Of a stretch of 64,000 nucleotides of DNA, positions 11,175-56,176 are shown piece after piece. The position numbers and the translations under genes were made by a program. The notes below the pieces were generated by a model. It did no database searches. It had not been told where the DNA came from and worked only from the letters and a program-made list of their open reading frames with translations. Each line of letters opens with the position of its first letter. Position 1 is the first letter of the stretch. The stretch lies in NCBI RefSeq assembly GCF_046105845.1, contig NZ_CP151004.1; one strand, written 5' to 3'. Source of the stretch: Escherichia coli. GTDB lineage: Bacteria; Pseudomonadota; Gammaproteobacteria; Enterobacterales; Enterobacteriaceae.

Positions 11175-11220
11175 GAAACCATAGTGATGTTTTTTGACAA
11201 TGTGTTAGCTCTTTATCAAT

Positions 11221-11452
11221 AGGCCGCACGGTTGTTTGGTGGCGTCAAAATCGCCGAGGCGTTCCCTGAAGGCCGGGGCAGCCCACATGGATGTGGGCTG
11301 AGGGCGCGTTTTACAGGGATGTTACCTCGCGCCCGACCCGGTAGCCGTAAGGGATAAGCCGAGGGCACCGCGCAGCGGCGATTTTGTTCGCCAGAGCCCG
11401 GGGGTGCAGGGGGCGGCGGCGATTGGCCGCCCCCTGCGCGCTCCTTGCGCCA
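11221..11452. repeat. GC-rich hairpin-dense intergenic element of unknown identity
   Basis: About 230 bp with perfect stems (CAGCCCACAT/ATGTGGGCTG at 11279-11300; GCAGGGGGCGGC/GCCGCCCCCTGC at 11406-11437) and a long-range inverted repeat (11243-11258 vs 11377-11393). Confidence 0.4.
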
Positions 11453-11546
11453 GTGATTATATGAAGCAATGCACATGACAGGAGCGCAACAGGATGAGAG
11501 ACTGAAATATTCTCGTTATTTTCGGATCTGATGACATTAATTAATT

Positions 11547-11630
11547 TTAAAATATCATCTTAAATACGCCAGTCACCACCAGTAGCCCAATCAGGAAAAT
11601 AATCAATACAGCCCAGAGTATAATTTTCAT
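11547..11630 (-). CDS. yohP: Small membrane protein YohP (27 aa)
   Basis: Hand translation gives MKIILWAVLIIFLIGLLVVTGVFKMIF*, a single-transmembrane small protein; not in the ORF track because of its size. Confidence 0.7.
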   Translation of the reverse strand: MKIILWAVLIIFLIGLLVVTGVFKMIF

Positions 11631-11853
11631 TGGCGTTCCTTTATTTGTGAGTGCTGAATAAGTATAGGAAAAAACGAAGCCCTTTGCCGCTATCCATAAA
11701 CTATTAAGATAAATCGGAAGATATCATTCACTTAGTGTATATTTTTCTGGATATGTCGTTTTATTGCCACTGATGTATTGCCACGCGAAACTAAAAAATA
11801 TATCGCAACACACGGTAATCTCCGCGCACCTTTTCTTACCTGATTATTCCCCC

Positions 11854-13290
11854 ATGAATCGTGATTCTTTTTATCCCGCCATCGCCTGTTTTCCGCTGTT
11901 ACTGATGCTGGCCGGGTGTGCGCCTATGCATGAAACCCGCCAGGCGTTAAGCCAGCACACGCCCGCTTCACAAGTTGACACCGCATTACCCACGGCGCTG
12001 AAAAATGGTTGGCCAGACAGCCAATGGTGGCTGGAGTATCACGATAATCAACTCACTTCCTTAATTAATAACGCACTACAGAACGCACCGGATATGCAGG
12101 TGGCTGAACAACGCATTCAACTGGCTGAAGCCCAGGCGAAGGCAGTTGCCACTCAGGATGGTCCGCAGCTCGACTTTTCTGCGGATATGGAGCGACAAAA
12201 AATGTCGGCAGAAGGCTTAATGGGGCCGTTTGCTCTGAACGATCCGGCCGCAGGTACGACCGGTCCGTGGTACACCAACGGTACTTTTGGCTTAACGGCG
12301 GGCTGGCATCTCGATATCTGGGGAAAGAATAGGGCGGAGGTAACTGCTCGCCTGGGAACGGTTAAAGCACGGGCGGCGGAACGCGAGCAAACCCGCCAAT
12401 TGCTGGCTGGCAGCGTAGCCCGCCTGTACTGGGAGTGGCAAACCCAGGCGGCGTTAAACACTGTCTTACAGCAAATCGAAAAAGAGCAGAACACCATTAT
12501 CGCCACCGATCGCCAGCTATATCAGAACGGGATTACTTCTTCAGTTGAAGGTGTGGAAACCGATATTAATGCCAGCAAAACCCGGCAGCAGCTCGACGAT
12601 GTCGCGGGGAAAATGAAAATTATTGAGGCACGGTTAAGCGCACTTACAAATCACCAGACAAAGGCATTGAAGCTTAATCCGGTCGCGTTGCCGAAAGTGG
12701 CAAGCCAGCTTCCTGATGAACTGGGGTACTCCTTACTGGCGCGGCGGGCAGATTTGCAGGCGGCGCACTGGTACGTTGAGTCATCGTTAAGCACTATTGA
12801 TGCGGCAAAAGCGGCATTTTATCCTGACATCAACCTGATGGCCTTCCTGCAACAGGATGCGTTGCACTTAAGCGATCTGTTCCGTCATTCCGCGCAGCAA
12901 ATGGGCGTTACGGCAGGCCTGACGCTACCCATTTTCGATAGTGGTCGTCTTAACGCCAACCTCGATATCGCAAAAGCCGAAAGCAACTTGTCTATCGCCA
13001 GCTACAACAAAGCGGTGGTTGAAGCGGTGAATGACGTGGCGCAGGCAGCCAGTCAGGTTCAGACACTGGCGGAGAAAAACCAGCATCAGGCGCAAATTGA
13101 GCGCGATGCCTTGCGTGTAGTAGGTCTTGCGCAGGCGCGCTTTAACGCGGGCATCATTGCGGGTTCCCGCGTCAGCGAAGCCAGAATCCCCGCGCTGCGT
13201 GAGCGGGCCAATGGCCTGTTATTGCAAGGGCAGTGGCTGGATGCCTCCATTCAACTCACTGGTGCGTTGGGCGGGGGTTACAAACGTTGA
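11854..13290 (+). CDS. mdtQ: Outer-membrane efflux lipoprotein MdtQ (OprM/NodT family), apparently intact
   Basis: Start chosen at MNRDSFYPAIACFPLLLMLAGC (lipobox) to give 478 aa; continuous frame. Confidence 0.88.
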   Translation: MNRDSFYPAIACFPLLLMLAGCAPMHETRQALSQHTPASQVDTALPTALKNGWPDSQWWLEYHDNQLTSLINNALQNAPDMQVAEQRIQLAEAQAKAVATQDGPQLDFSADMERQKMSAEGLMGPFALNDPAAGTTGPWYTNGTFGLTAGWHLDIWGKNRAEVTARLGTVKARAAEREQTRQLLAGSVARLYWEWQTQAALNTVLQQIEKEQNTIIATDRQLYQNGITSSVEGVETDINASKTRQQLDDVAGKMKIIEARLSALTNHQTKALKLNPVALPKVASQLPDELGYSLLARRADLQAAHWYVESSLSTIDAAKAAFYPDINLMAFLQQDALHLSDLFRHSAQQMGVTAGLTLPIFDSGRLNANLDIAKAESNLSIASYNKAVVEAVNDVAQAASQVQTLAEKNQHQAQIERDALRVVGLAQARFNAGIIAGSRVSEARIPALRERANGLLLQGQWLDASIQLTGALGGGYKR

Positions 13291-15569: not shown

Positions 15570-15742
15570 AAAGTTCTTTTGTGTTGCATTGCTGGCGTAA
15601 ATGTCAGCAATGCAGCATTTCCTCACGATTCTCCTTTGACGATCGCACTTTTTGCTCGTTATGATGGCGTCGCTAGCCTCAGTAAATCCTTACTCCGGCG
15701 GTGCGCAACCCGTGCGCGTGAACCACTATCTGAATGCTCATC

Positions 15743-36060: not shown

Positions 36061-36171
36061 ATATTCATCCCTGAAATGTATTAATGAAATAAACGATATT
36101 TTACGCGCAATAAATGTTTTGCGCATTAGTTGTTTGAACGGAAAATATCTGGAAAGCAGATCACAGTAAAT

Positions 36172-36254
36172 AAAAAAACCTGCTGGTGAGGCAGGTTCTT
36201 TTATTTACTATTTTCAGGCCCAACACCGCAGCCTGTGCAACATCGTGTTCCAAC
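36172..36254 (-). ncRNA. Candidate OrzO-like antitoxin sRNA, copy 1
   Basis: Minus-strand TATAAT at 36266-36261 with TTGCAA -35 at 36289-36284 (17-bp spacer); ends at hairpin CCTGCCTCACCAGCAGG followed by TTTTTTT (36195-36172). Confidence 0.45.
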
Positions 36255-36283
36255 GAACGAATTATAACCATCGGTGGACCCCG

Positions 36284-36311
36284 TTGCAATTAAGATAATG
36301 AGATTTATAAT
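36284..36311 (+). promoter_or_regulatory. Sigma70 promoter of toxin mRNA, copy 1
   Basis: TTGCAA-16 bp-TATAAT; predicted start near 36318 gives a 5' UTR of about 175 nt. Confidence 0.5.
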
Positions 36312-36492
36312 CCAGACGGTTGGGACGTTGCGCCGGATCGGACCAATTTCAAGTCCTGGCTACCGGACGGGTGGTGCTGCAGGTGGTGCCCTGATCCGGA
36401 GTGCAACATCGTGGTCCAACATACGTAAACCAGTATCGACAGGCAGTGTAAGGGTAAGGTGCTGGTGTTGCGCTCCTTAATAAGGAGAGCGG

Positions 36493-36582
36493 ATGGACAC
36501 GCAGACACAAAAGTTAACCGTGCTCATTGCTGTACTGGAGCTATTAGTGGCTCTGTTACGGTTGATTGATTTGTTGAAGTAA
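36493..36582 (+). CDS. zorO: Type I toxin, ZorO/ZorP family (29 aa), copy 1
   Basis: AGGAGAG Shine-Dalgarno then MDTQTQKLTVLIAVLELLVALLRLIDLLK*; which copy is zorO versus zorP cannot be told from sequence alone. Confidence 0.75.
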   Translation: MDTQTQKLTVLIAVLELLVALLRLIDLLK

Positions 36583-36604
36583 TGGGCAAATTGAAACGCA
36601 TCTA

Positions 36605-36634
36605 AGGGGGAATACCGCTTCCCCCTTTAATAAA
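36605..36634 (+). terminator. Terminator of toxin mRNA, copy 1
   Basis: AGGGGGAA-taccgc-TTCCCCCT stem followed by TTAATAAAAT. Confidence 0.4.
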
Positions 36635-36777
36635 ATGATTACATCTTCCATTAATTCACCTGATAACTTTTTTCTTATTTATAAATTCATCGATTTTATA
36701 ATTAACGTACCATTTCGCCGGGATGTGAATATTTATGGTGGCTATTGGCGAAAAATATCTGGAAAGTAGATCGCAGA

Positions 36778-36862
36778 AAATAAAAGAACCTGCTGGTGAG
36801 GCAGGTTCTTTTATTTACTACTTTGATGTTAAGTTACTGATAGTGCAACATGGCATCTCAAC
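36778..36862 (-). ncRNA. Candidate OrzP-like antitoxin sRNA, copy 2
   Basis: Minus-strand TATAAT at 36874-36869 and TTGCAA at 36897-36892 (17-bp spacer); hairpin at 36789-36805 followed by a U-rich tract. Confidence 0.4.
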
Positions 36863-36891
36863 GAACGAATTATAACCACCGCTGGACCGTG

Positions 36892-36919
36892 TTGCAATTA
36901 AGATAATGAGATTTATAAT
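36892..36919 (+). promoter_or_regulatory. Sigma70 promoter of toxin mRNA, copy 2
   Basis: TTGCAA-16 bp-TATAAT. Confidence 0.5.
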
Positions 36920-37100
36920 CCTGACTGTTGGGAAGTTGCGCCGGATCGAACCCATTTCAAGTCCTGGCTACCGGACGGGTGGTGCCGCAGGTAGTGCTCT
37001 GATCCGGAGTGCAACATGGCGACTCAACATACGTAAATCAGTATCGACAGGCAGTGTAAGGGTAAGGTGCTGGTGTTGCGCTCCTTAATAAGGAGAGCGG

Positions 37101-37190
37101 ATGGACACGCTGACACAAAAGTTAACCGTGCTCATTGCCGTACTGGAGCTATTAGTGGCTCTGTTACGGTTGATTGATTTGTTGAAGTAA
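37101..37190 (+). CDS. zorP: Type I toxin, ZorO/ZorP family (29 aa), copy 2
   Basis: MDTLTQKLTVLIAVLELLVALLRLIDLLK*; differs from copy 1 only at codon 4 (CTG Leu versus CAG Gln). Confidence 0.75.
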   Translation: MDTLTQKLTVLIAVLELLVALLRLIDLLK

Positions 37191-37209
37191 TGGGCAAATT
37201 GAAACGCAA

Positions 37210-37563
37210 CTAAGGGGGAAAACCGCTTCCCCCTTTAATAAAGTAATATTCTATTAGTTGGTTGAATATATTCTGTAGTTTACGATTAAAAATTGCTATT
37301 ACAGTTTCAGGTGATTCACCTCGTAATTTCCGCTCATCAATACACTCATCTCTTATATAAATCAACGCATCATTTATTAGCGGGTCAGCATCTTCTCGAT
37401 CACGTTGATGAAATGTTGGACGTAGCCGGAATCGCTCCAGTCGATAGACAGAACCTGTAAATAATTCAGAGCGTTTATGGATCTCAAGCCTGAAGGAAAA
37501 CGGCTCTTCAGGTACAGGGGCCTCATAATCGTAAATAGTGATCAGCTCTTTTTGCACGATCAT
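37210..37563 (-). CDS. yehK: Uncharacterised protein YehK
   Basis: 117-aa ORF starting MIVQKELITIYDYEAP; its last 10 codons lie inside the copy-2 terminator hairpin (37213-37242). Confidence 0.7.
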   Translation of the reverse strand: MIVQKELITIYDYEAPVPEEPFSFRLEIHKRSELFTGSVYRLERFRLRPTFHQRDREDADPLINDALIYIRDECIDERKLRGESPETVIAIFNRKLQNIFNQLIEYYFIKGGSGFPP

Positions 37564-41265: not shown

Positions 41266-44200
41266 TTATTCAAACAGGGCTTCAATATCGTTAATGAGTT
41301 CGCTGGCGGTGATGTCGTCGAGCACGGAGAACTGCGCTTCCTGTGTTGAATTACTCCCCCAGCCATAGCTTTCCGCTTTGCCTTCCCATAGCCACAGCTT
41401 ACTCAAGAGTTGCTCGGCACTGAGTTCGGCTGGCGACATGCCGACCGCAAAACCTTCATCGATTTTCATGATTAACGACCAGCGGCCCAGCGGTTTGATC
41501 ATCCAGCCGATCCAGCCACCGTCCTGCGGTTCACCACGCATCCAGCCTTTATTCGCCAGCCCCATTACCCGACCGCTCGGGCATTTTCTGCCTGCCCAGC
41601 GGGTCAATTCGCTGGCATTGCGCTCGGTTTCTGTCAGGGCGTAACTGTTACGGTCGAGCTGGCGGAACGGCGGTAGCAGTTCGTAGTCGGCAAAAAGTTG
41701 ACCAAAGGCGGCAGCATCCGTGGGTGATATTTCCAGAACGTGAGGAATCCAACAGAGATATCGCCTTCCGGCAGGGTGAAAAGATCATCGTCTGCGGTGC
41801 TGTAGCTGTTATCTTCCGCCACGCGAAAGCAAGCCAGTAGCTCGTTTTCGGTGCTATAAACGCCCCAAATCAGACGGCGGGTTAAGTGACGAACCAGCGG
41901 ATGCTCAACCAGGAAGAGCTGAAAGTTTTCCGGCGACCAGCGGCGGCGCAGGCACATGGCGGATTCCAGCCTTGCTACCTGCTGGGCGGCGACGGTACGC
42001 GCATCTTTTTTCAGCAATTTGTAGCGGTTAACAGCATCGTTTGCCTGTGATTCATCATCGCTTTTATTGGGTTTAGGTAAGTCTTTCAGGCGGCTGCCGG
42101 AAACATCGCGCACAAACGGTTTTAAGGTTTCATCAAAGCTGACGGTGAACTGGCGTGGGCCAAAATCCAGCAGCAGCGAACCGTTATCATCCAGACCGAG
42201 ATCCGGTGCTAACCGATCTTCAAGCTCCGCTACCGTCAGTTCGCGACTCTCGGCAATGTCGGCAATTTTTTCTTTTGCCCGCTCCTGTAATGCTTTGAAT
42301 TTCAGTTTCTGGGCGATCCCGTTAAGCTGCATCAGGGCGATATCACTACCGATAGCAGCGAGAATATCCAGCCCGACGGTGGCGCGTTTATGCTGGGATT
42401 CACCAGGCCAGGCGCGAATCAAAGGCGTCAGTTTGCGGGCGGTGTCGTCGTTACCGAGAACGCCTAACGCAGTGAACGCCCAGCTCTCTTTCGATGGTGC
42501 GCCAGCGGCCAGCCAGGCGGTAAACAGATCCCAGGTAAATTCAGCCAGTGAGTCGGCGGTACAGGCGGCTTTCACCTGCAATAATCCCGGATACAGTGCC
42601 TCTTCCTGAGGGAAGCGGAGCATTTCACCGAGGCGTAGGAGGGCGCTATCTGGCAGTGATTGGGCATTTGCTTTTAATACCGGGCGGGTCCAGATCGATG
42701 GCTGATAAAAGGCCGGAAGAGTGGGGATTTTTGTCGGGTGATTATCTAAGGGATCGAGCGCAAGCATAGCGTTCACCGCATCTATTACTTCCGGCTGGTT
42801 ATAACGCCGGGCGATTTCTTGCAGTAATGGCTGATGATCGTTTTCGATAAGCATACGCAAGGCAGCGCGGGCGTTATCCTGGGCTTCACCGGCTTTGCCG
42901 AGCGCCGCAGGCAGTAGGCCGGTAATGGCGTGTTCCGGGTATTTCAGCAGCCAGGTGCGGGCGTCTTGTCGTAGGGTTTTGAGTTTGTTGAAGGCGCGGG
43001 CGATCAGTGGCGCTAATTCGATAGCCGCAAAATATTGTGCTACAGGCAGAGCTTCTTGTGGATAGCGTGAAAAGGAGTGAATAAAACCCTGTAACCCAGT
43101 GAGTTGCAGGTGCGTCATGACAAACTCGACACCGACGTGTGGCTCTTTACTGAGGACATTCCACGCCTGCGCTGTCTTTTCGATAGGCAGGGCGGCTAAC
43201 ATGTAAAGCTGCCATTCCCGTTGATAGGAGTGCCAGAAGGTTTTAAATTCGCTGATCAGCGCGGAATAATGTCCCCTTTGCCAGAGATCTATAGCAGCAT
43301 CAGGCGCTTTCATATACTGGCCATTATTCCAGCGATTGAAACCCAGACGTGCCAGGTAGTTCTGAATATCCTCTTTTTGGCCGATGTCTATTTGATGTGC
43401 GTGCCAGCGATGCCTTGCATGAATCTCTTTTTCTGCCGTCTCGGTCAATGTGCAGCATGACTCCAACGATAATGGCGTTAAATCCAATACCGGTATAACA
43501 GATTTTTTCTTTTTCGAAAGCCAGGGCGGTGAGACTAATACGGCAGGCAGTAGATCGGCGCAGGCATGGTTTGAGGGCTGTGTCAGTTGTTGCAGGCATG
43601 CTTTCAGCACTGCAACTGCGGGTGTTGAGAGCCAGGGAGTGACCTGATCTGCCAGTGCCGGTTGCGAGATAAGCATCGTCATCAGCATAATGCGCCAACT
43701 ATTCTCTTCTTTTTGCGCAAGAAGTTCCGCCAGTGCCGCCAGTGCCGTGTGTGGGAACGCAGCGCAAGCCTTAGTCATTCGTTCATGGCAGCGTTTAGTT
43801 TTGCCAGACACACGTATAAGTAGCATTAATGCTTGTGGGTGATTGATCTCTGCGAGAATGCTTCCGCAAAGATCAGCATAAGCATAGGGGGCGAAGCGAG
43901 CGATTCCAGCAATCCCTTGCTCCTGCAAAACGGTGACATTCCAGATGCAACCATGGTAATAGTCATTAAAAAGGTCGTACGCGCAATAAGATTCCAGTGC
44001 TTTGAGTAAGGAAGATTCTTGAACAACAAGTTTCAGCCATTCAACAGTTTGGACATTTTTCTGCTTCAGTAACCGTCGTGCGACTTCTTCTGCAATCTCC
44101 GGGCGTTCCGGTAGCATTAGCGCTACCATCGGTTGTTGAACGGGAGGAATATCAGGTAAAGCTGTAATGAATTTATCTACACAGCGTTGCCACAAAGTTT

Positions 44201-45014
44201 CTTCTGCAAGAGCCAAATGCTTACGCAGTCGAACGTCAAAGGGGGTAACACAATGTGCATGGTTTAATAATGGCTGAAAAGTAATGTGTATGCTTGTTCT
44301 GTGATAAGCGCAATCGAACGAGATATATTGCATGGCAATAAACATATCCACGGCAAATTCTAGTCCGTAGACATAGACAATTTCATCCATGAGTTCAGGG
44401 CATTCGCCCCAGAATTTACGCGAAACCAGACCAACCTGTACAGCCAACGCAGCAGGAGAAAGTGGACCATTAGCGAGAGCTTCATTGATATTCTGCTGCC
44501 AGTTAGCAGAACATGCACTGAAATCGTATGTTGTTAATTTTCCTGATAGATTATGAATATCCTGACCTAAATTCATAAGGAGGCTGTCTTGTGGTTCGCT
44601 TACAGCATCCCCAGGAAAACGTCGGGAAGGTAAGGCCTCCTGAGACTTTTTCTCCGATAGATGGATAGTGGAATCATCTGTAAGCCACGGGCATGGTGTC
44701 TCAGCAGGTTCAGCAACCATACTTTGGTCAAATACGACAGTGGTTTCTGCCACGCCAGTTGTATCTACTTCGATCGTTTCTATTTTGATTGCGGTTTGGG
44801 ATGGCGAAGATAATTCTTCCACATACCCCTTCTTCACCTTCTCCGCAATCAGCTTCAGTCCCGCTTTTTCCGCCGCTGCTGCATCCGCAAAACTTTTTAC
44901 CTGGCTTTGTCCGTTGGTGCCGACTTTACCCCAGTTGATGTGCAGTTCGTTTCCCTGCTGCTCCACCGCCCAGAATTTATGTGATTTTTCGTCCTGATAG
45001 ATAAAGTGTTTCAT
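41266..45014 (-). pseudogene. molR: molR (yehH): WGR-domain/DUF4132 giant protein gene with a frameshift near the C-terminus
   Basis: ORFs 41634-45014 (1126 aa) and 41266-41607 are in different frames; the second frame continues the YehI-like C-terminal homology (ISPTDAAAFGQLFADYELLPPFRQL...); N-terminus has a WGR-like motif (KFWAVEQQGNELHINWGKVGTNG). Confidence 0.8.
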
Positions 45015-50581: not shown

Positions 50582-53062
50582 ATGTTGAGAATGACCCCAC
50601 TTGCATCAGCAATCGTAGCGTTATTGCTCGGCATTGAAGCTTATGCAGCTGAAGAAACCTTTGATACCCATTTTATGATAGGTGGAGTGAAAGATCAGCA
50701 GGTTGCAAATATTCGTCTTGATGATAATCAACCCTTGCCGGGGCAGTATGACATCGATATTTATGTCAATAAGCAATGGCGCGGGAAATATGAGATCATT
50801 GTTAAAGACAACCCGCAAGAAACATGTTTATCAAGGGAAATTATCAAGCGGTTAGGCATTAATACCGATAACTTTGCCAGCGGTAAGCAATGTTTAACAT
50901 TTGAGCAACTTGTTCAGGGAGGGAGCTATACCTGGGATATCGGAGTTTTTCGTCTCGATTTCAGTGTCCCGCAGGCGTGGGTGGAAGAACTGGAAAGTGG
51001 CTATGTTCCACCGGAAAACTGGGAGCGGGGTATTAATGCGTTTTATACCTCTTATTATGTGAGTCAGTATTACAGCGACTATAAAGCGTCGGGTAATAGC
51101 AAGAGTACATATGTACGTTTTAACAGCGGGTTAAACTTACTGGGGTGGCAACTGCATTCTGATGCCAGTTTCAGTAAAACAAATAGCAATCCAGGGGTGT
51201 GGAAAAGCAATACCCTGTATCTGGAACGTGGATTTGCCCAACTTCTCGGCACGCTTCGCGTGGGTGATATGTACACATCAAGCGATATTTTTGATTCTGT
51301 TCGCTTCAGCGGTGTGCGGTTGTTTCGTGATATGCAGATGTTGCCTAACTCGAAACAAAATTTTACTCCACGGGTGCAGGGGATTGCTCAGAGTAACGCG
51401 CTGGTAACTATTGAACAGAACGGTTTTGTGGTTTATCAGAAAGAGGTTCCTCCTGGCCCGTTTGCGATTACAGATTTGCAGTTGGCCGGTGGTGGAGCGG
51501 ATCTTGATGTCAGCGTGAAAGAGGCGGACGGTTCGGTAACCACCTATCTGGTGCCTTATGCAGCGGTGCCAAATATGCTGCAACCTGGCGTATCGAAATA
51601 TGATTTTGCGGCGGGTCGTAGCCATATTGAAGGGGCAAGCAAACAAAGTGATTTTGTCCAGGCGGGTTATCAGTATGGTTTTAATAATTTATTGACGCTG
51701 TATGGTGGCTCGATGGTCGCGAATAATTATTACGCGTTCACTTTGGGGACTGGCTGGAATACACGCATTGGTGCCATTTCCGTCGATGCCACGAAGTCGC
51801 ATAGTAAACAAGACAACGGCGATGTGTTTGACGGGCAAAGTTATCAAATTGCCTACAACAAATTTGTGAGCCAAACGTCGACGCGTTTTGGTCTGGCGGC
51901 CTGGCGTTATTCGTCGCGTGATTACCGGACATTTAACGATCACGTTTGGGCAAACAATAAAGATAATTATCGCCGTGATGAAAACGATATCTATGACATT
52001 GCCGATTATTACCAGAACGATTTTGGCCGTAAAAATAGCTTTTCTGCCAATATGAGCCAGTCATTGCCAGAAGGCTGGGGTTCTGTGTCCTTAAGTACGT
52101 TATGGCGAGATTACTGGGGGCGTAGCGGCAGCAGTAAGGATTATCAGTTGAGTTATTCCAACAACCTGCGACGGATAAGCTATACCCTCGCGGCAAGCCA
52201 GGCTTATGACGAGAATCATCATGAAGAGAAACGTTTTAATATTTTTATATCGATTCCCTTTGATTGGGGTGATGACGTTACGACGCCTCGTCGGCAAATA
52301 TATATGTCTAACTCAACGACGTTTGATGATCAGGGTTTTGCCTCAAATAATACGGGATTATCGGGAACCGTTGGAAGCCGGGATCAATTTAACTATGGGG
52401 TCAACCTGAGTCATCAGCATCAGGGAAATGAAACGACAGCTGGAGCGAATTTAACCTGGAACGCGCCGGTTGCGACAGTGAATGGCAGTTATAGTCAGTC
52501 GAGTACTTATCGACAGGCTGGAGCCAGTGTTTCAGGGGGCATTGTCGCCTGGTCGGGGGGCGTTAATCTGGCGAACCGTCTTTCCGAAACGTTTGCAGTG
52601 ATGAATGCGCCAGGAATTAAAGATGCTTATGTCAATGGGCAAAAATATCGCACAACAAACCGTAATGGAGTGGTGGTATACGACGGAATGACACCTTATC
52701 GGGAAAATCACCTGATGCTGGATGTGTCGCAAAGCGATAGCGAAGCAGAATTGCGCGGTAACCGGAAAATTGCCGCCCCTTTTCGCGGCGCGGTTGTACT
52801 GGTTAATTTTGATACCGATCAGCGCAAGCCCTGGTTTATAAAAGCGTTAAGAGCGGATGGGCAACCATTAACGTTTGGTTATGAAGTCAATGATATCCAC
52901 GGTCATAATATTGGCGTTGTCGGCCAGGGAAGTCAGTTATTTATTCGCACCAATGAAGTACCGCCATCGGTTAATGTAGCAATTGATAAGCAACAAGGAC
53001 TTTCATGCACAATCACCTTCGGTAAAGAGATTGATGAAAGTAGAAATTATATCTGTTGGTGA
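50582..53062 (+). CDS. yehB: Fimbrial outer-membrane usher YehB
   Basis: Start at MLRMTPLASAIVALLLG gives 826 aa; usher family sequence. Confidence 0.93.
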   Translation: MLRMTPLASAIVALLLGIEAYAAEETFDTHFMIGGVKDQQVANIRLDDNQPLPGQYDIDIYVNKQWRGKYEIIVKDNPQETCLSREIIKRLGINTDNFASGKQCLTFEQLVQGGSYTWDIGVFRLDFSVPQAWVEELESGYVPPENWERGINAFYTSYYVSQYYSDYKASGNSKSTYVRFNSGLNLLGWQLHSDASFSKTNSNPGVWKSNTLYLERGFAQLLGTLRVGDMYTSSDIFDSVRFSGVRLFRDMQMLPNSKQNFTPRVQGIAQSNALVTIEQNGFVVYQKEVPPGPFAITDLQLAGGGADLDVSVKEADGSVTTYLVPYAAVPNMLQPGVSKYDFAAGRSHIEGASKQSDFVQAGYQYGFNNLLTLYGGSMVANNYYAFTLGTGWNTRIGAISVDATKSHSKQDNGDVFDGQSYQIAYNKFVSQTSTRFGLAAWRYSSRDYRTFNDHVWANNKDNYRRDENDIYDIADYYQNDFGRKNSFSANMSQSLPEGWGSVSLSTLWRDYWGRSGSSKDYQLSYSNNLRRISYTLAASQAYDENHHEEKRFNIFISIPFDWGDDVTTPRRQIYMSNSTTFDDQGFASNNTGLSGTVGSRDQFNYGVNLSHQHQGNETTAGANLTWNAPVATVNGSYSQSSTYRQAGASVSGGIVAWSGGVNLANRLSETFAVMNAPGIKDAYVNGQKYRTTNRNGVVVYDGMTPYRENHLMLDVSQSDSEAELRGNRKIAAPFRGAVVLVNFDTDQRKPWFIKALRADGQPLTFGYEVNDIHGHNIGVVGQGSQLFIRTNEVPPSVNVAIDKQQGLSCTITFGKEIDESRNYICW

Positions 53063-53072
53063 GAGGTGGAAT

Positions 53073-54107
53073 ATGATGTTCAGAAATGGAATGTTACTAA
53101 TATTTATTTTATGGGTTAATTTTACCTGGGCTGGATGTCGTACCACTGCATCATTAAATATTACTGATAGTATTAATGTGGGGGAGATTTTAGCGAATGA
53201 GGTTTCCTTTAGTAAAAGTGTTGTGTTTACTGGGATATCTTGTGATACGAGCACGGATAAAATAGTCTATAAAAATATCCAAAGTGATTGGGTTGAAGTC
53301 GGGCCTTTTGGTAATGGCGAAAAGTTAAAGGTTAAAATAGAGTCTTTAGGTAAAACCAGTGACACGATTGGGAAATCCAGCAATGCGCAGGCAGTATTAC
53401 CCTATGTGGTTAAAATATCTAAAGGCACACCTGATTTTACTGGAGAAAGAAAACCTACCTGGTTTCTTTCAGATACTGTGATTGCAAATATTGGCGGTGA
53501 GTCATCTTCATCCATTGACTTTTGGTTGAGCATTTGTAAGACATTGAAGATTAACTGGTGTGTAAGTTATCTCACCAGTAAACTGGCGGGGGATACATTT
53601 ACGCTTGGATTAAGTATTTCCTATTATCCTAAAAATACGACCTGTAAGCCTGAAAACACAATAATAAAAGTAGATGATATTGCCTTGTCCCAATTCAGAA
53701 GTCAGGGAAAGATTACGGCGAATAGTAAGGAAGGAATAATTACGTTGAAATGTGATAATCTTTTCGGCGACACAAAACAAGCATCGCGGAATATGGTCGT
53801 ATATCTTTCCAGCAGTGACTTAGTTACAGGAAGCAATACAATTTTGCGCGGCAACATAGATAATGGTGTAGGATTTGTGTTGGATCTAAAAGAACCACCC
53901 AAAGGGACTGAAGCAGCCATCAAAATTTCTGCTAGCGGCGATCAGGGCGCGGCGACATCATTATGGAAAACAGATAAAACCGGGGCTTCTTTAAATAGTA
54001 ATATTATTAATATACCTGTCCTGGCCAGTTACTACGTCTACGATACAAACAAAGTAAAATCTGGCGCACTACAGGCAACCGCATTAATCAACGTGAAATA
54101 CGACTAA
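53073..54107 (+). CDS. yehA: Fimbrial adhesin-like protein YehA
   Basis: GAGGTGG Shine-Dalgarno then MMFRNGMLLIF (signal peptide) gives 344 aa. Confidence 0.88.
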   Translation: MMFRNGMLLIFILWVNFTWAGCRTTASLNITDSINVGEILANEVSFSKSVVFTGISCDTSTDKIVYKNIQSDWVEVGPFGNGEKLKVKIESLGKTSDTIGKSSNAQAVLPYVVKISKGTPDFTGERKPTWFLSDTVIANIGGESSSSIDFWLSICKTLKINWCVSYLTSKLAGDTFTLGLSISYYPKNTTCKPENTIIKVDDIALSQFRSQGKITANSKEGIITLKCDNLFGDTKQASRNMVVYLSSSDLVTGSNTILRGNIDNGVGFVLDLKEPPKGTEAAIKISASGDQGAATSLWKTDKTGASLNSNIINIPVLASYYVYDTNKVKSGALQATALINVKYD

Positions 54108-56043: not shown

Positions 56044-56176
56044 AACCAAACGACTCGGGGTGCCCTTCTGCGTGAAGGCTGAGAAATACCCGTATCACCT
56101 GATCTGGATAATGCCAGCGTAGGGAAGTCACGGACCACCAGGTCATTGCTTCTTCACGTTATGGCAGGAGCAAACT
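56044..56176 (+). ncRNA. TPP (THI-box) riboswitch in the thiM leader
   Basis: Leader contains GGGGTGCCCTTCTGCGTGAAGGCTGAGAAATACCCGTATCACCTGATCTGGATAATGCCAGCGTAGGGAA; Shine-Dalgarno GGAG at 56167-56170 lies in the expression platform. Confidence 0.85.

Follow-up and report, generated by a model that had tools for sequence, protein, structure and literature searches.

E. coli K-12 is a natural mdtQ null by the loss of a single A, and K-12-based screens therefore cannot show what the MdtQ channel does. Does a strain in which the gene is open keep a functional outer-membrane channel and, if so, which pump might it serve? We addressed this in a 64,000-nucleotide stretch of E. coli DNA, referred to here as the window, for which the original prediction had been that mdtQ reads as one continuous 478-codon frame with a lipobox, and that K-12 carries the gene as a frameshifted pseudogene.

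The mdtQ reading frame and its K-12 counterpart

The mdtQ CDS lies at 11854..13290 on the plus strand, running from an ATG at 11854 to a TGA ending at 13290 (1437 nt; 478 codons and the stop) with no internal stop codon. The MdtQ equivalog model of NCBIfam, NF008524, matched the window protein at 1017.7 bits (cut-off 650 bits), aligned over 1–478 of 478, and a lipobox, LAGC, is found at residues 19–22. The prediction of an uninterrupted frame with a lipobox is thus borne out. The NodT subfamily model TIGR01845 also scored above its cut-off (274.7 against 210.05 bits, aligned over 4–460 of 460) and Pfam OEP (PF02321) was recognised in two stretches at 107.5 bits. The second-best family model was that of MdtP (NF007390; E 5e-105), which matched over nearly the full length. 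Its score of 352 bits is below the cut-off of 597, and MdtQ is therefore a paralogue rather than MdtP itself. A TTG start further upstream at 11764, present in the program-made list of open reading frames and in a few GenBank entries and giving a protein of 508 aa, was dropped in favour of the ATG at 11854, because NF008524 covers exactly the 478 residues from this ATG and only from here is the lipobox correctly spaced. In all intact strains examined the RefSeq CDS length of mdtQ is likewise 1437 nt. We conclude that the window gene is very probably the ordinary intact E. coli mdtQ (formerly yohG), encoding an outer-membrane-factor (OMF) lipoprotein of the NodT/TolC superfamily.

In K-12 W3110 the orthologous locus (yohG; Y75_RS11215) is a RefSeq pseudogene of 1436 nt, flagged 'frameshifted'. 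A global alignment of the window and K-12 genes gave 34 substitutions and one 1-nt indel (97.6% nucleotide identity), and the two share the same 90 nt immediately before the ATG. The indel falls in a run of A's at 12001..12005 on the plus strand (codons Lys50/Asn51), which has five A's in the window and four in K-12 (...gcgctgaaaatggttgg...). This missing A is the sole inactivating lesion of the K-12 gene: the frame shifts after codon 50 and stops after 69 codons. When one A is re-inserted the K-12 sequence yields a clean frame of 478 codons, 8 amino-acid differences separating its product from the window protein, and the lesion is therefore single and recent. Both the annotation and the lost A confirm that K-12 mdtQ is a frameshifted pseudogene, as had been stated in the original prediction. 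A frameshift or stop hidden in the window copy is excluded, the only indel relative to K-12 being K-12's own deletion, and 12 of 12 other mdtQ alleles align with the window allele codon for codon. Alignment to K-12 mdtQ and to intact orthologues, the check that had been suggested, thus leaves the window frame intact.

Homopolymers are known to be prone to sequencing errors, and the critical site is one; in addition, the window protein has His at position 35 (His35), a position occupied by Gln in all 12 alleles compared. The open frame might on these grounds be an assembly artefact, or the protein might be inactivated by a missense change, both of which we consider extremely improbable. In the predicted structure residue 35 belongs to the N-terminal tether, a low-confidence part outside barrel and tunnel, and only 2–13 amino-acid differences, allelic in nature, separate the window protein from the 11 other intact alleles sampled. 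Two further residues, Asp248 and Gln397, are common only to strain VCSW5 among the compared alleles. An artefact at the A run is largely excluded, since two independent public assemblies carry the window DNA at 100% identity (7.4 kb of it in a contig of GCA_044249515.1 and 4.9 kb in one built from run ERR13115083) and the A5 version of the site occurs exactly in 4,587 genomes (see below).

Predicted lipoprotein signal and fold

The N-terminus of the window protein (MNRDSFYPAIACFPLLLMLAGCAPMHE) carries a putative lipoprotein signal peptide at residues 1–22 (11854..11919, plus strand), in which LAGC, at 11908–11919, is the single match to the lipobox pattern. Across 80 aligned homologues, a diverse set reaching down to ~26% identity, the lipobox cysteine, Cys22, does not vary; it is the predicted site of lipidation. 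The residue at +2 is Ala23. It is well established that lipoproteins with a residue other than Asp at +2 are sorted to the outer membrane, which is the destination predicted here.

An AlphaFold2 monomer model, built on an 80-sequence alignment, had a mean pLDDT of 86.8 and a pTM of 0.82. Four beta-barrel strands are predicted within 12166..12924 on the plus strand (residues 105–116, 139–153, 325–336 and 348–357), and the tunnel helices are predicted at residues 158–224, 231–265, 359–431 and 437–472, two of them spanning 67 and 73 residues; the last helix reaches 13269, beyond the interval that holds the strands. The N-terminal tether, which includes residue 35, is modelled as disordered with low confidence. 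When the model was compared with the PDB using Foldseek, all 44 of the 44 matches with E <= 0.001 were OMF/TolC-type channels and the top 25 were NodT-type lipoprotein OMFs. VceC was best, followed by OprN, OprJ, CmeC, CusC, OprM and SilC, with TolC scoring lower; the top matches VceC, OprN, CusC, OprM and CmeC had a probability of 1.00 and TM scores of 0.78–0.87 normalised to target. On the basis of this model, MdtQ is confidently predicted to be a TolC-type channel protomer.

The closest solved relative is VceC of Vibrio cholerae (PDB 1yc9), both by sequence (E 8.8e-40) and by fold (Foldseek E 1.4e-23, TM 0.87 normalised to target), although the two proteins come from different organisms and share 26% identity. 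VceC is encoded in a vceCAB operon with its own adaptor and pump. TolC of E. coli (PDB 1ek9) is more distant, at 12–14% identity, and is not lipidated, whereas MdtQ has a lipobox; most E. coli pumps also have TolC as their proven duct, whereas MdtQ is without a proven partner. One published list of N-acylated efflux proteins in the E. coli outer membrane includes MdtQ. A published structural comparison used the intact O157:H7 protein (PMC11762307).

From what is known of the family, the MdtQ precursor would be lipidated at Cys22, sorted to the outer membrane by the Lol system in keeping with Ala at +2, and would form a trimer with a 12-stranded beta-barrel and a long periplasmic alpha-helical tunnel. 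Contact with the adaptor of an inner-membrane pump would open the channel, and MdtQ would act as the exit duct for that pump, the periplasmic adaptor between them being the product of a gene at another locus.

Gene neighbourhood, prevalence and selection

In the window, no adaptor or pump genes lie beside mdtQ; its neighbours are dusC, yohP, yohF (encoding an SDR) and yohD (DedA), and the block dusC-yohP-mdtQ-yohF-yohD-yohC-pbpG is collinear with that of K-12 W3110 and VCSW5. Salmonella keeps the block dusC-yohP-mdtQ-yohF-yohD-yohC-pbpG-dld-bglX, and neither here nor in the other E. coli examined were adaptor or pump genes found beside mdtQ, which has been described as 'encoded independently' (PMC11762307). 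A GC-rich stretch separates dusC from yohP; it is the TRIP1c repeat of PMC10888264.

The yohP gene is intact (27 codons, 11547–11630, minus strand) and is separated from mdtQ by a divergent intergenic region of 223 bp (11631..11853), the presumed mdtQ promoter and 5' UTR. No Shine-Dalgarno motif is recognisable before the mdtQ ATG (CCTGATTATTCCCCC-ATG), and a consensus promoter/terminator scan gave nothing above shuffled expectation (2 promoters found against 2.5 expected). An Rfam scan of the window detected no RNA elements in or beside mdtQ. Since there is neither a Shine-Dalgarno motif nor an outstanding promoter, expression of mdtQ may be low; its promoter also lacks experimental confirmation (PMC11762307). 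Taken with the absence of partner genes nearby, these observations would fit a gene that is intact yet cryptic, poorly or rarely expressed and giving no measurable efflux, with TolC serving all known tripartite pumps. Moreover, the function of MdtQ has not been elucidated (PMC11762307), K-12 shows no obvious defect as a natural null, and a few isolates of Salmonella Typhi and Paratyphi A carry independent truncations (PMC9241588). The K-12 and Salmonella cases show that mdtQ is dispensable in some niches. We nevertheless consider a cryptic gene rather unlikely in view of its prevalence and of the selection acting on it.

Of 5,426 complete E. coli genomes, 5,421 carry the 1.7-kb mdtQ locus. Counting exact matches to a 61-nt probe centred on the A run, in its window (A5) and K-12 (A4) versions, we found the intact site in 4,587 of 5,407 complete E. 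coli genomes and the K-12 allele in 355. Among the 40 matches listed for the K-12 allele, nearly all were named K-12 strains or lab lines; MG1655, C600, J53, DH5alpha, NEB 5-alpha and evolved MG1655 lines were among these carriers. An intact 1437-nt CDS was found in 11 of 11 non-K-12 genomes, which were picked at even steps down the ranking and include O157:H7, O111:H8, Nissle 1917 and isolates from human, poultry, duck and soil. As in the window, MdtQ of non-K-12 E. coli (O157:H7, Q8X659; VCSW5, WP_001078159.1) has 478 aa and is encoded in the context dusC-yohP-mdtQ-yohF. Intact mdtQ is the E. coli norm and not peculiar to the source strain, with K-12 the exception. A 2025 review notes that mdtQ, though annotated as a pseudogene, belongs to the conserved core genome of E. 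coli (PMC11762307); the intactness of the gene in the species was thus already known, and the exact window protein is already catalogued (NCBI WP_409023900.1).

Across 13 alleles the mean dS was 0.072 and the mean dN 0.0055. From the resulting dN/dS of 0.077, purifying selection on the MdtQ protein is strong within E. coli. E. albertii, Salmonella and Citrobacter have orthologues of 478–479 aa, at 94%, 82% and 80% identity, respectively. This selection and the full-length orthologues, which in Salmonella stand in the same gene context, argue for long-term selection, which would be unexpected for a gene that is never used, and the near-universal intact allele likewise speaks against a cryptic mdtQ. 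We thus favour the reading that the source strain may keep a functional outer-membrane channel, which fits the dN/dS of ~0.08, the predicted TolC-type fold and the conservation in Salmonella and Citrobacter.

Candidate pump partners and natural role

Which pump might a functional MdtQ channel serve? A word-indexed homologue search listed 120 matches, all of them orthologues at at least 79% identity, and these did not inform on partners. We also searched 50%-identity representatives exhaustively and inspected the genomic context of the closest non-orthologous matches. Three homologues, P0141 (42% identity), P0142 (36%) and P0143 (36%), are encoded by the last gene of YtcA-adaptor-FUSC-OMF operons, in which the adaptor contains a beta-barrel of the AaeA type and there is overlap between stop and start codons. 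A fourth, P0139 (40%), lies directly downstream of the gene for a FUSC protein, and P0146 (39%) just before a gene for an EmrA-like adaptor. The homologue P0135 (60%) is an orphan with an SDR gene downstream, which is the orthologous arrangement; the contigs of P0135, P0140 and P0145 are only 2–3 kb, too small for wider context.

We take the YtcA-adaptor-FUSC-OMF layout to be that of E. coli ytcA-mdtN-mdtO-mdtP. The mdtP operon thereby resembles those of the closest operon-embedded MdtQ homologues, and MdtP, the outer-membrane factor of MdtNOP, is like MdtQ a NodT-type lipoprotein; mdtQ, unlike mdtP, stands on its own with no adaptor or pump gene beside it. Because of the operon layout of its closest homologues, and because MdtP is its second-best family model, MdtQ may, as a lead only, belong to an OMF clade tied to FUSC/aromatic-acid-exporter-type pumps. 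The same lead, drawn from four or five contexts of homologues at 36–42% identity, suggests that the likeliest partner class would be a FUSC/aromatic-acid-exporter-type or EmrA-type system, for example MdtNO or AaeAB, and not an RND pump. An RND or MFS partner had been proposed in the original prediction, and some reviews class FUSC/AaeB-type systems under MFS (PMC11762307, PMC8277102).

A major review leaves the outer-membrane component of AaeAB open, as 'AaeAB-?' (PMC8277102). MdtQ might be the missing outer-membrane duct of a FUSC-type pump, with AaeAB as the main candidate, a role that would have escaped notice since efflux genetics in E. coli has relied almost entirely on K-12. We regard this suggestion as a long shot; if it were true, wild strains would own an efflux route that is absent from K-12. 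Alternatively, MdtQ could be a second duct for MdtNO. The FUSC/AaeB-type context provides a concrete and cheap hypothesis for the MdtQ partner.

The contexts of the homologues also bear on whether a functional MdtQ duct has a natural role other than drug efflux, such as the export of metabolites (aromatic acids), siderophores or peptides, or service to a system resembling type I secretion. The nearest homologues that lie in operons have partners among the FUSC/AaeB-like proteins, a family that in E. coli includes the p-hydroxybenzoate exporter AaeAB (PMC8277102), and the drug phenotypes reported are only slight, the passages on MdtQ in PMC11762307 and PMC9241588 describing null mutants as slightly more susceptible to puromycin, acriflavine and tetraphenylarsonium. 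However, the gene name and the sole phenotypes given in the MdtQ passages of PMC11762307 concern drugs, and the homologues that provide the context evidence are just 36–42% identical to MdtQ. A natural role outside drug efflux is thus, in our judgement, unlikely. Should the null phenotype have been obtained in K-12, in which the frame ends at codon 69, its interpretation would be uncertain.

Outside the mdtQ region, the initial 25 kb of the window had no match of at least 99% in any complete RefSeq E. coli genome. A yehH-like DUF4132 gene and the yehA adhesin region are divergent from K-12. Two zor-orz type I toxin-antitoxin units also stand in tandem in the window, whereas in K-12 W3110 the zor-orz interval has one OrzO-P match and ~0.9 kb of the window sequence is missing.

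The mdtQ 5' region and the neighbouring repeat

The intact yohP gene, which encodes a small membrane protein of 27 codons (MKIILWAVLIIFLIGLLVVTGVFKMIF; window 11547-11630, minus strand), and mdtQ are divergently oriented and have a 223-bp intergenic region in common. Inspecting window 11829-11853 (CCTTTTCTTACCTGATTATTCCCCC), we found no recognisable Shine-Dalgarno sequence ahead of the mdtQ ATG, suggesting from the sequence that translation of mdtQ may be weak or regulated. The 90 nt upstream of mdtQ are the same in K-12 and in the window. In some GenBank entries an in-frame TTG, at 11764 here, is used as the mdtQ start, giving a product of 508 aa.

On the other side of yohP, between it and the dusC stop (11174), lies a GC-rich repeat (about 11218-11490) containing a 16-nt inverted repeat (11246-11261/11371-11386) and a spurious 86-codon ORF on the minus strand (11216-11476). 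The repeat is placed 43 bp past yohI/dusC and 363 bp ahead of yohG/mdtQ, a location which matches that of the TRIP1c repeat, which PMC10888264 reports to be a substrate in chromosomal rearrangements between TRIP1 copies.

The mdtQ allele and relatedness of the strain

At codon 35 of mdtQ (window 11956-11958) the window allele encodes His, whereas all 12 compared E. coli alleles encode Gln. Since this residue falls within the low-confidence N-terminal tether of the structural model, His35 is probably neutral. At the mdtQ locus, 99% identity is reached by only five records, the top match being the soil/drain isolate VCSW5 (99.2%). For the larger stretch of window 1-25000, none of 5,426 complete RefSeq E. 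coli genomes gave a match of at least 99%; the top matches among them were at 98.4-98.5%, each as two to four joined pieces. It seems that either the lineage of this strain is sparsely represented among complete genomes or the strain is mosaic in window 1-25000. The window is nonetheless 100% identical, over 7.4 kb, to a contig of GCA_044249515.1. We also note that in an E. coli Nissle 1917 assembly (NZ_CM189242.1; locus L010) mdtQ is intact and adjoins yohF, an SDR oxidoreductase gene that carries a pseudogene flag there (internal stop; L010 1641-1698).

Stretches diverging from K-12 W3110

A zor-orz type I toxin-antitoxin unit is duplicated in tandem at window 36139-37190, as a 300-nt direct-repeat family with a spacing of 608 nt. 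Rfam identified two matches to the OrzO-P antitoxin RNA on the minus strand (36172-36247 and 36782-36855), compared to a single match in the corresponding K-12 W3110 stretch (yehK-yehL in that record), and two ZorO-like ORFs of 29 codons each (MDTQTQKLTVLIAVLELLVALLRLIDLLK) are found on the plus strand (36493-36582 and 37101-37190). About 0.9 kb of the window (36353-37246) does not align to the K-12 W3110 zor-orz stretch.

Upstream of yehI, K-12 W3110 carries a DUF4132 gene annotated as a pseudogene ('frameshifted; internal stop'), and at the position of this pseudogene a 1126-codon ORF starts in the window (41634-45014, minus strand). The ORF may be another gene better preserved in the window than in K-12, but it seems to stop about 370 nt before the K-12 pseudogene annotation does. 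Part of this region (43078-44818) has hardly any alignment to K-12, with one 380-nt piece at 86%. A further stretch of about 1 kb (53055-54024), without K-12 alignment at megablast-like stringency, corresponds to yehA, which encodes the fimbrial adhesin in the yehABCD operon; the window probably has a divergent allele of this adhesin.

RNA elements

Two plus-strand Rfam matches, both exceeding the gathering score, are expected E. coli features. The Peptidase-S11 RNA motif (15658-15738) is immediately upstream of pbpG, as judged by collinearity with K-12, and the TPP riboswitch (56046-56142) is the positional counterpart of that annotated beside thiM in K-12 W3110.
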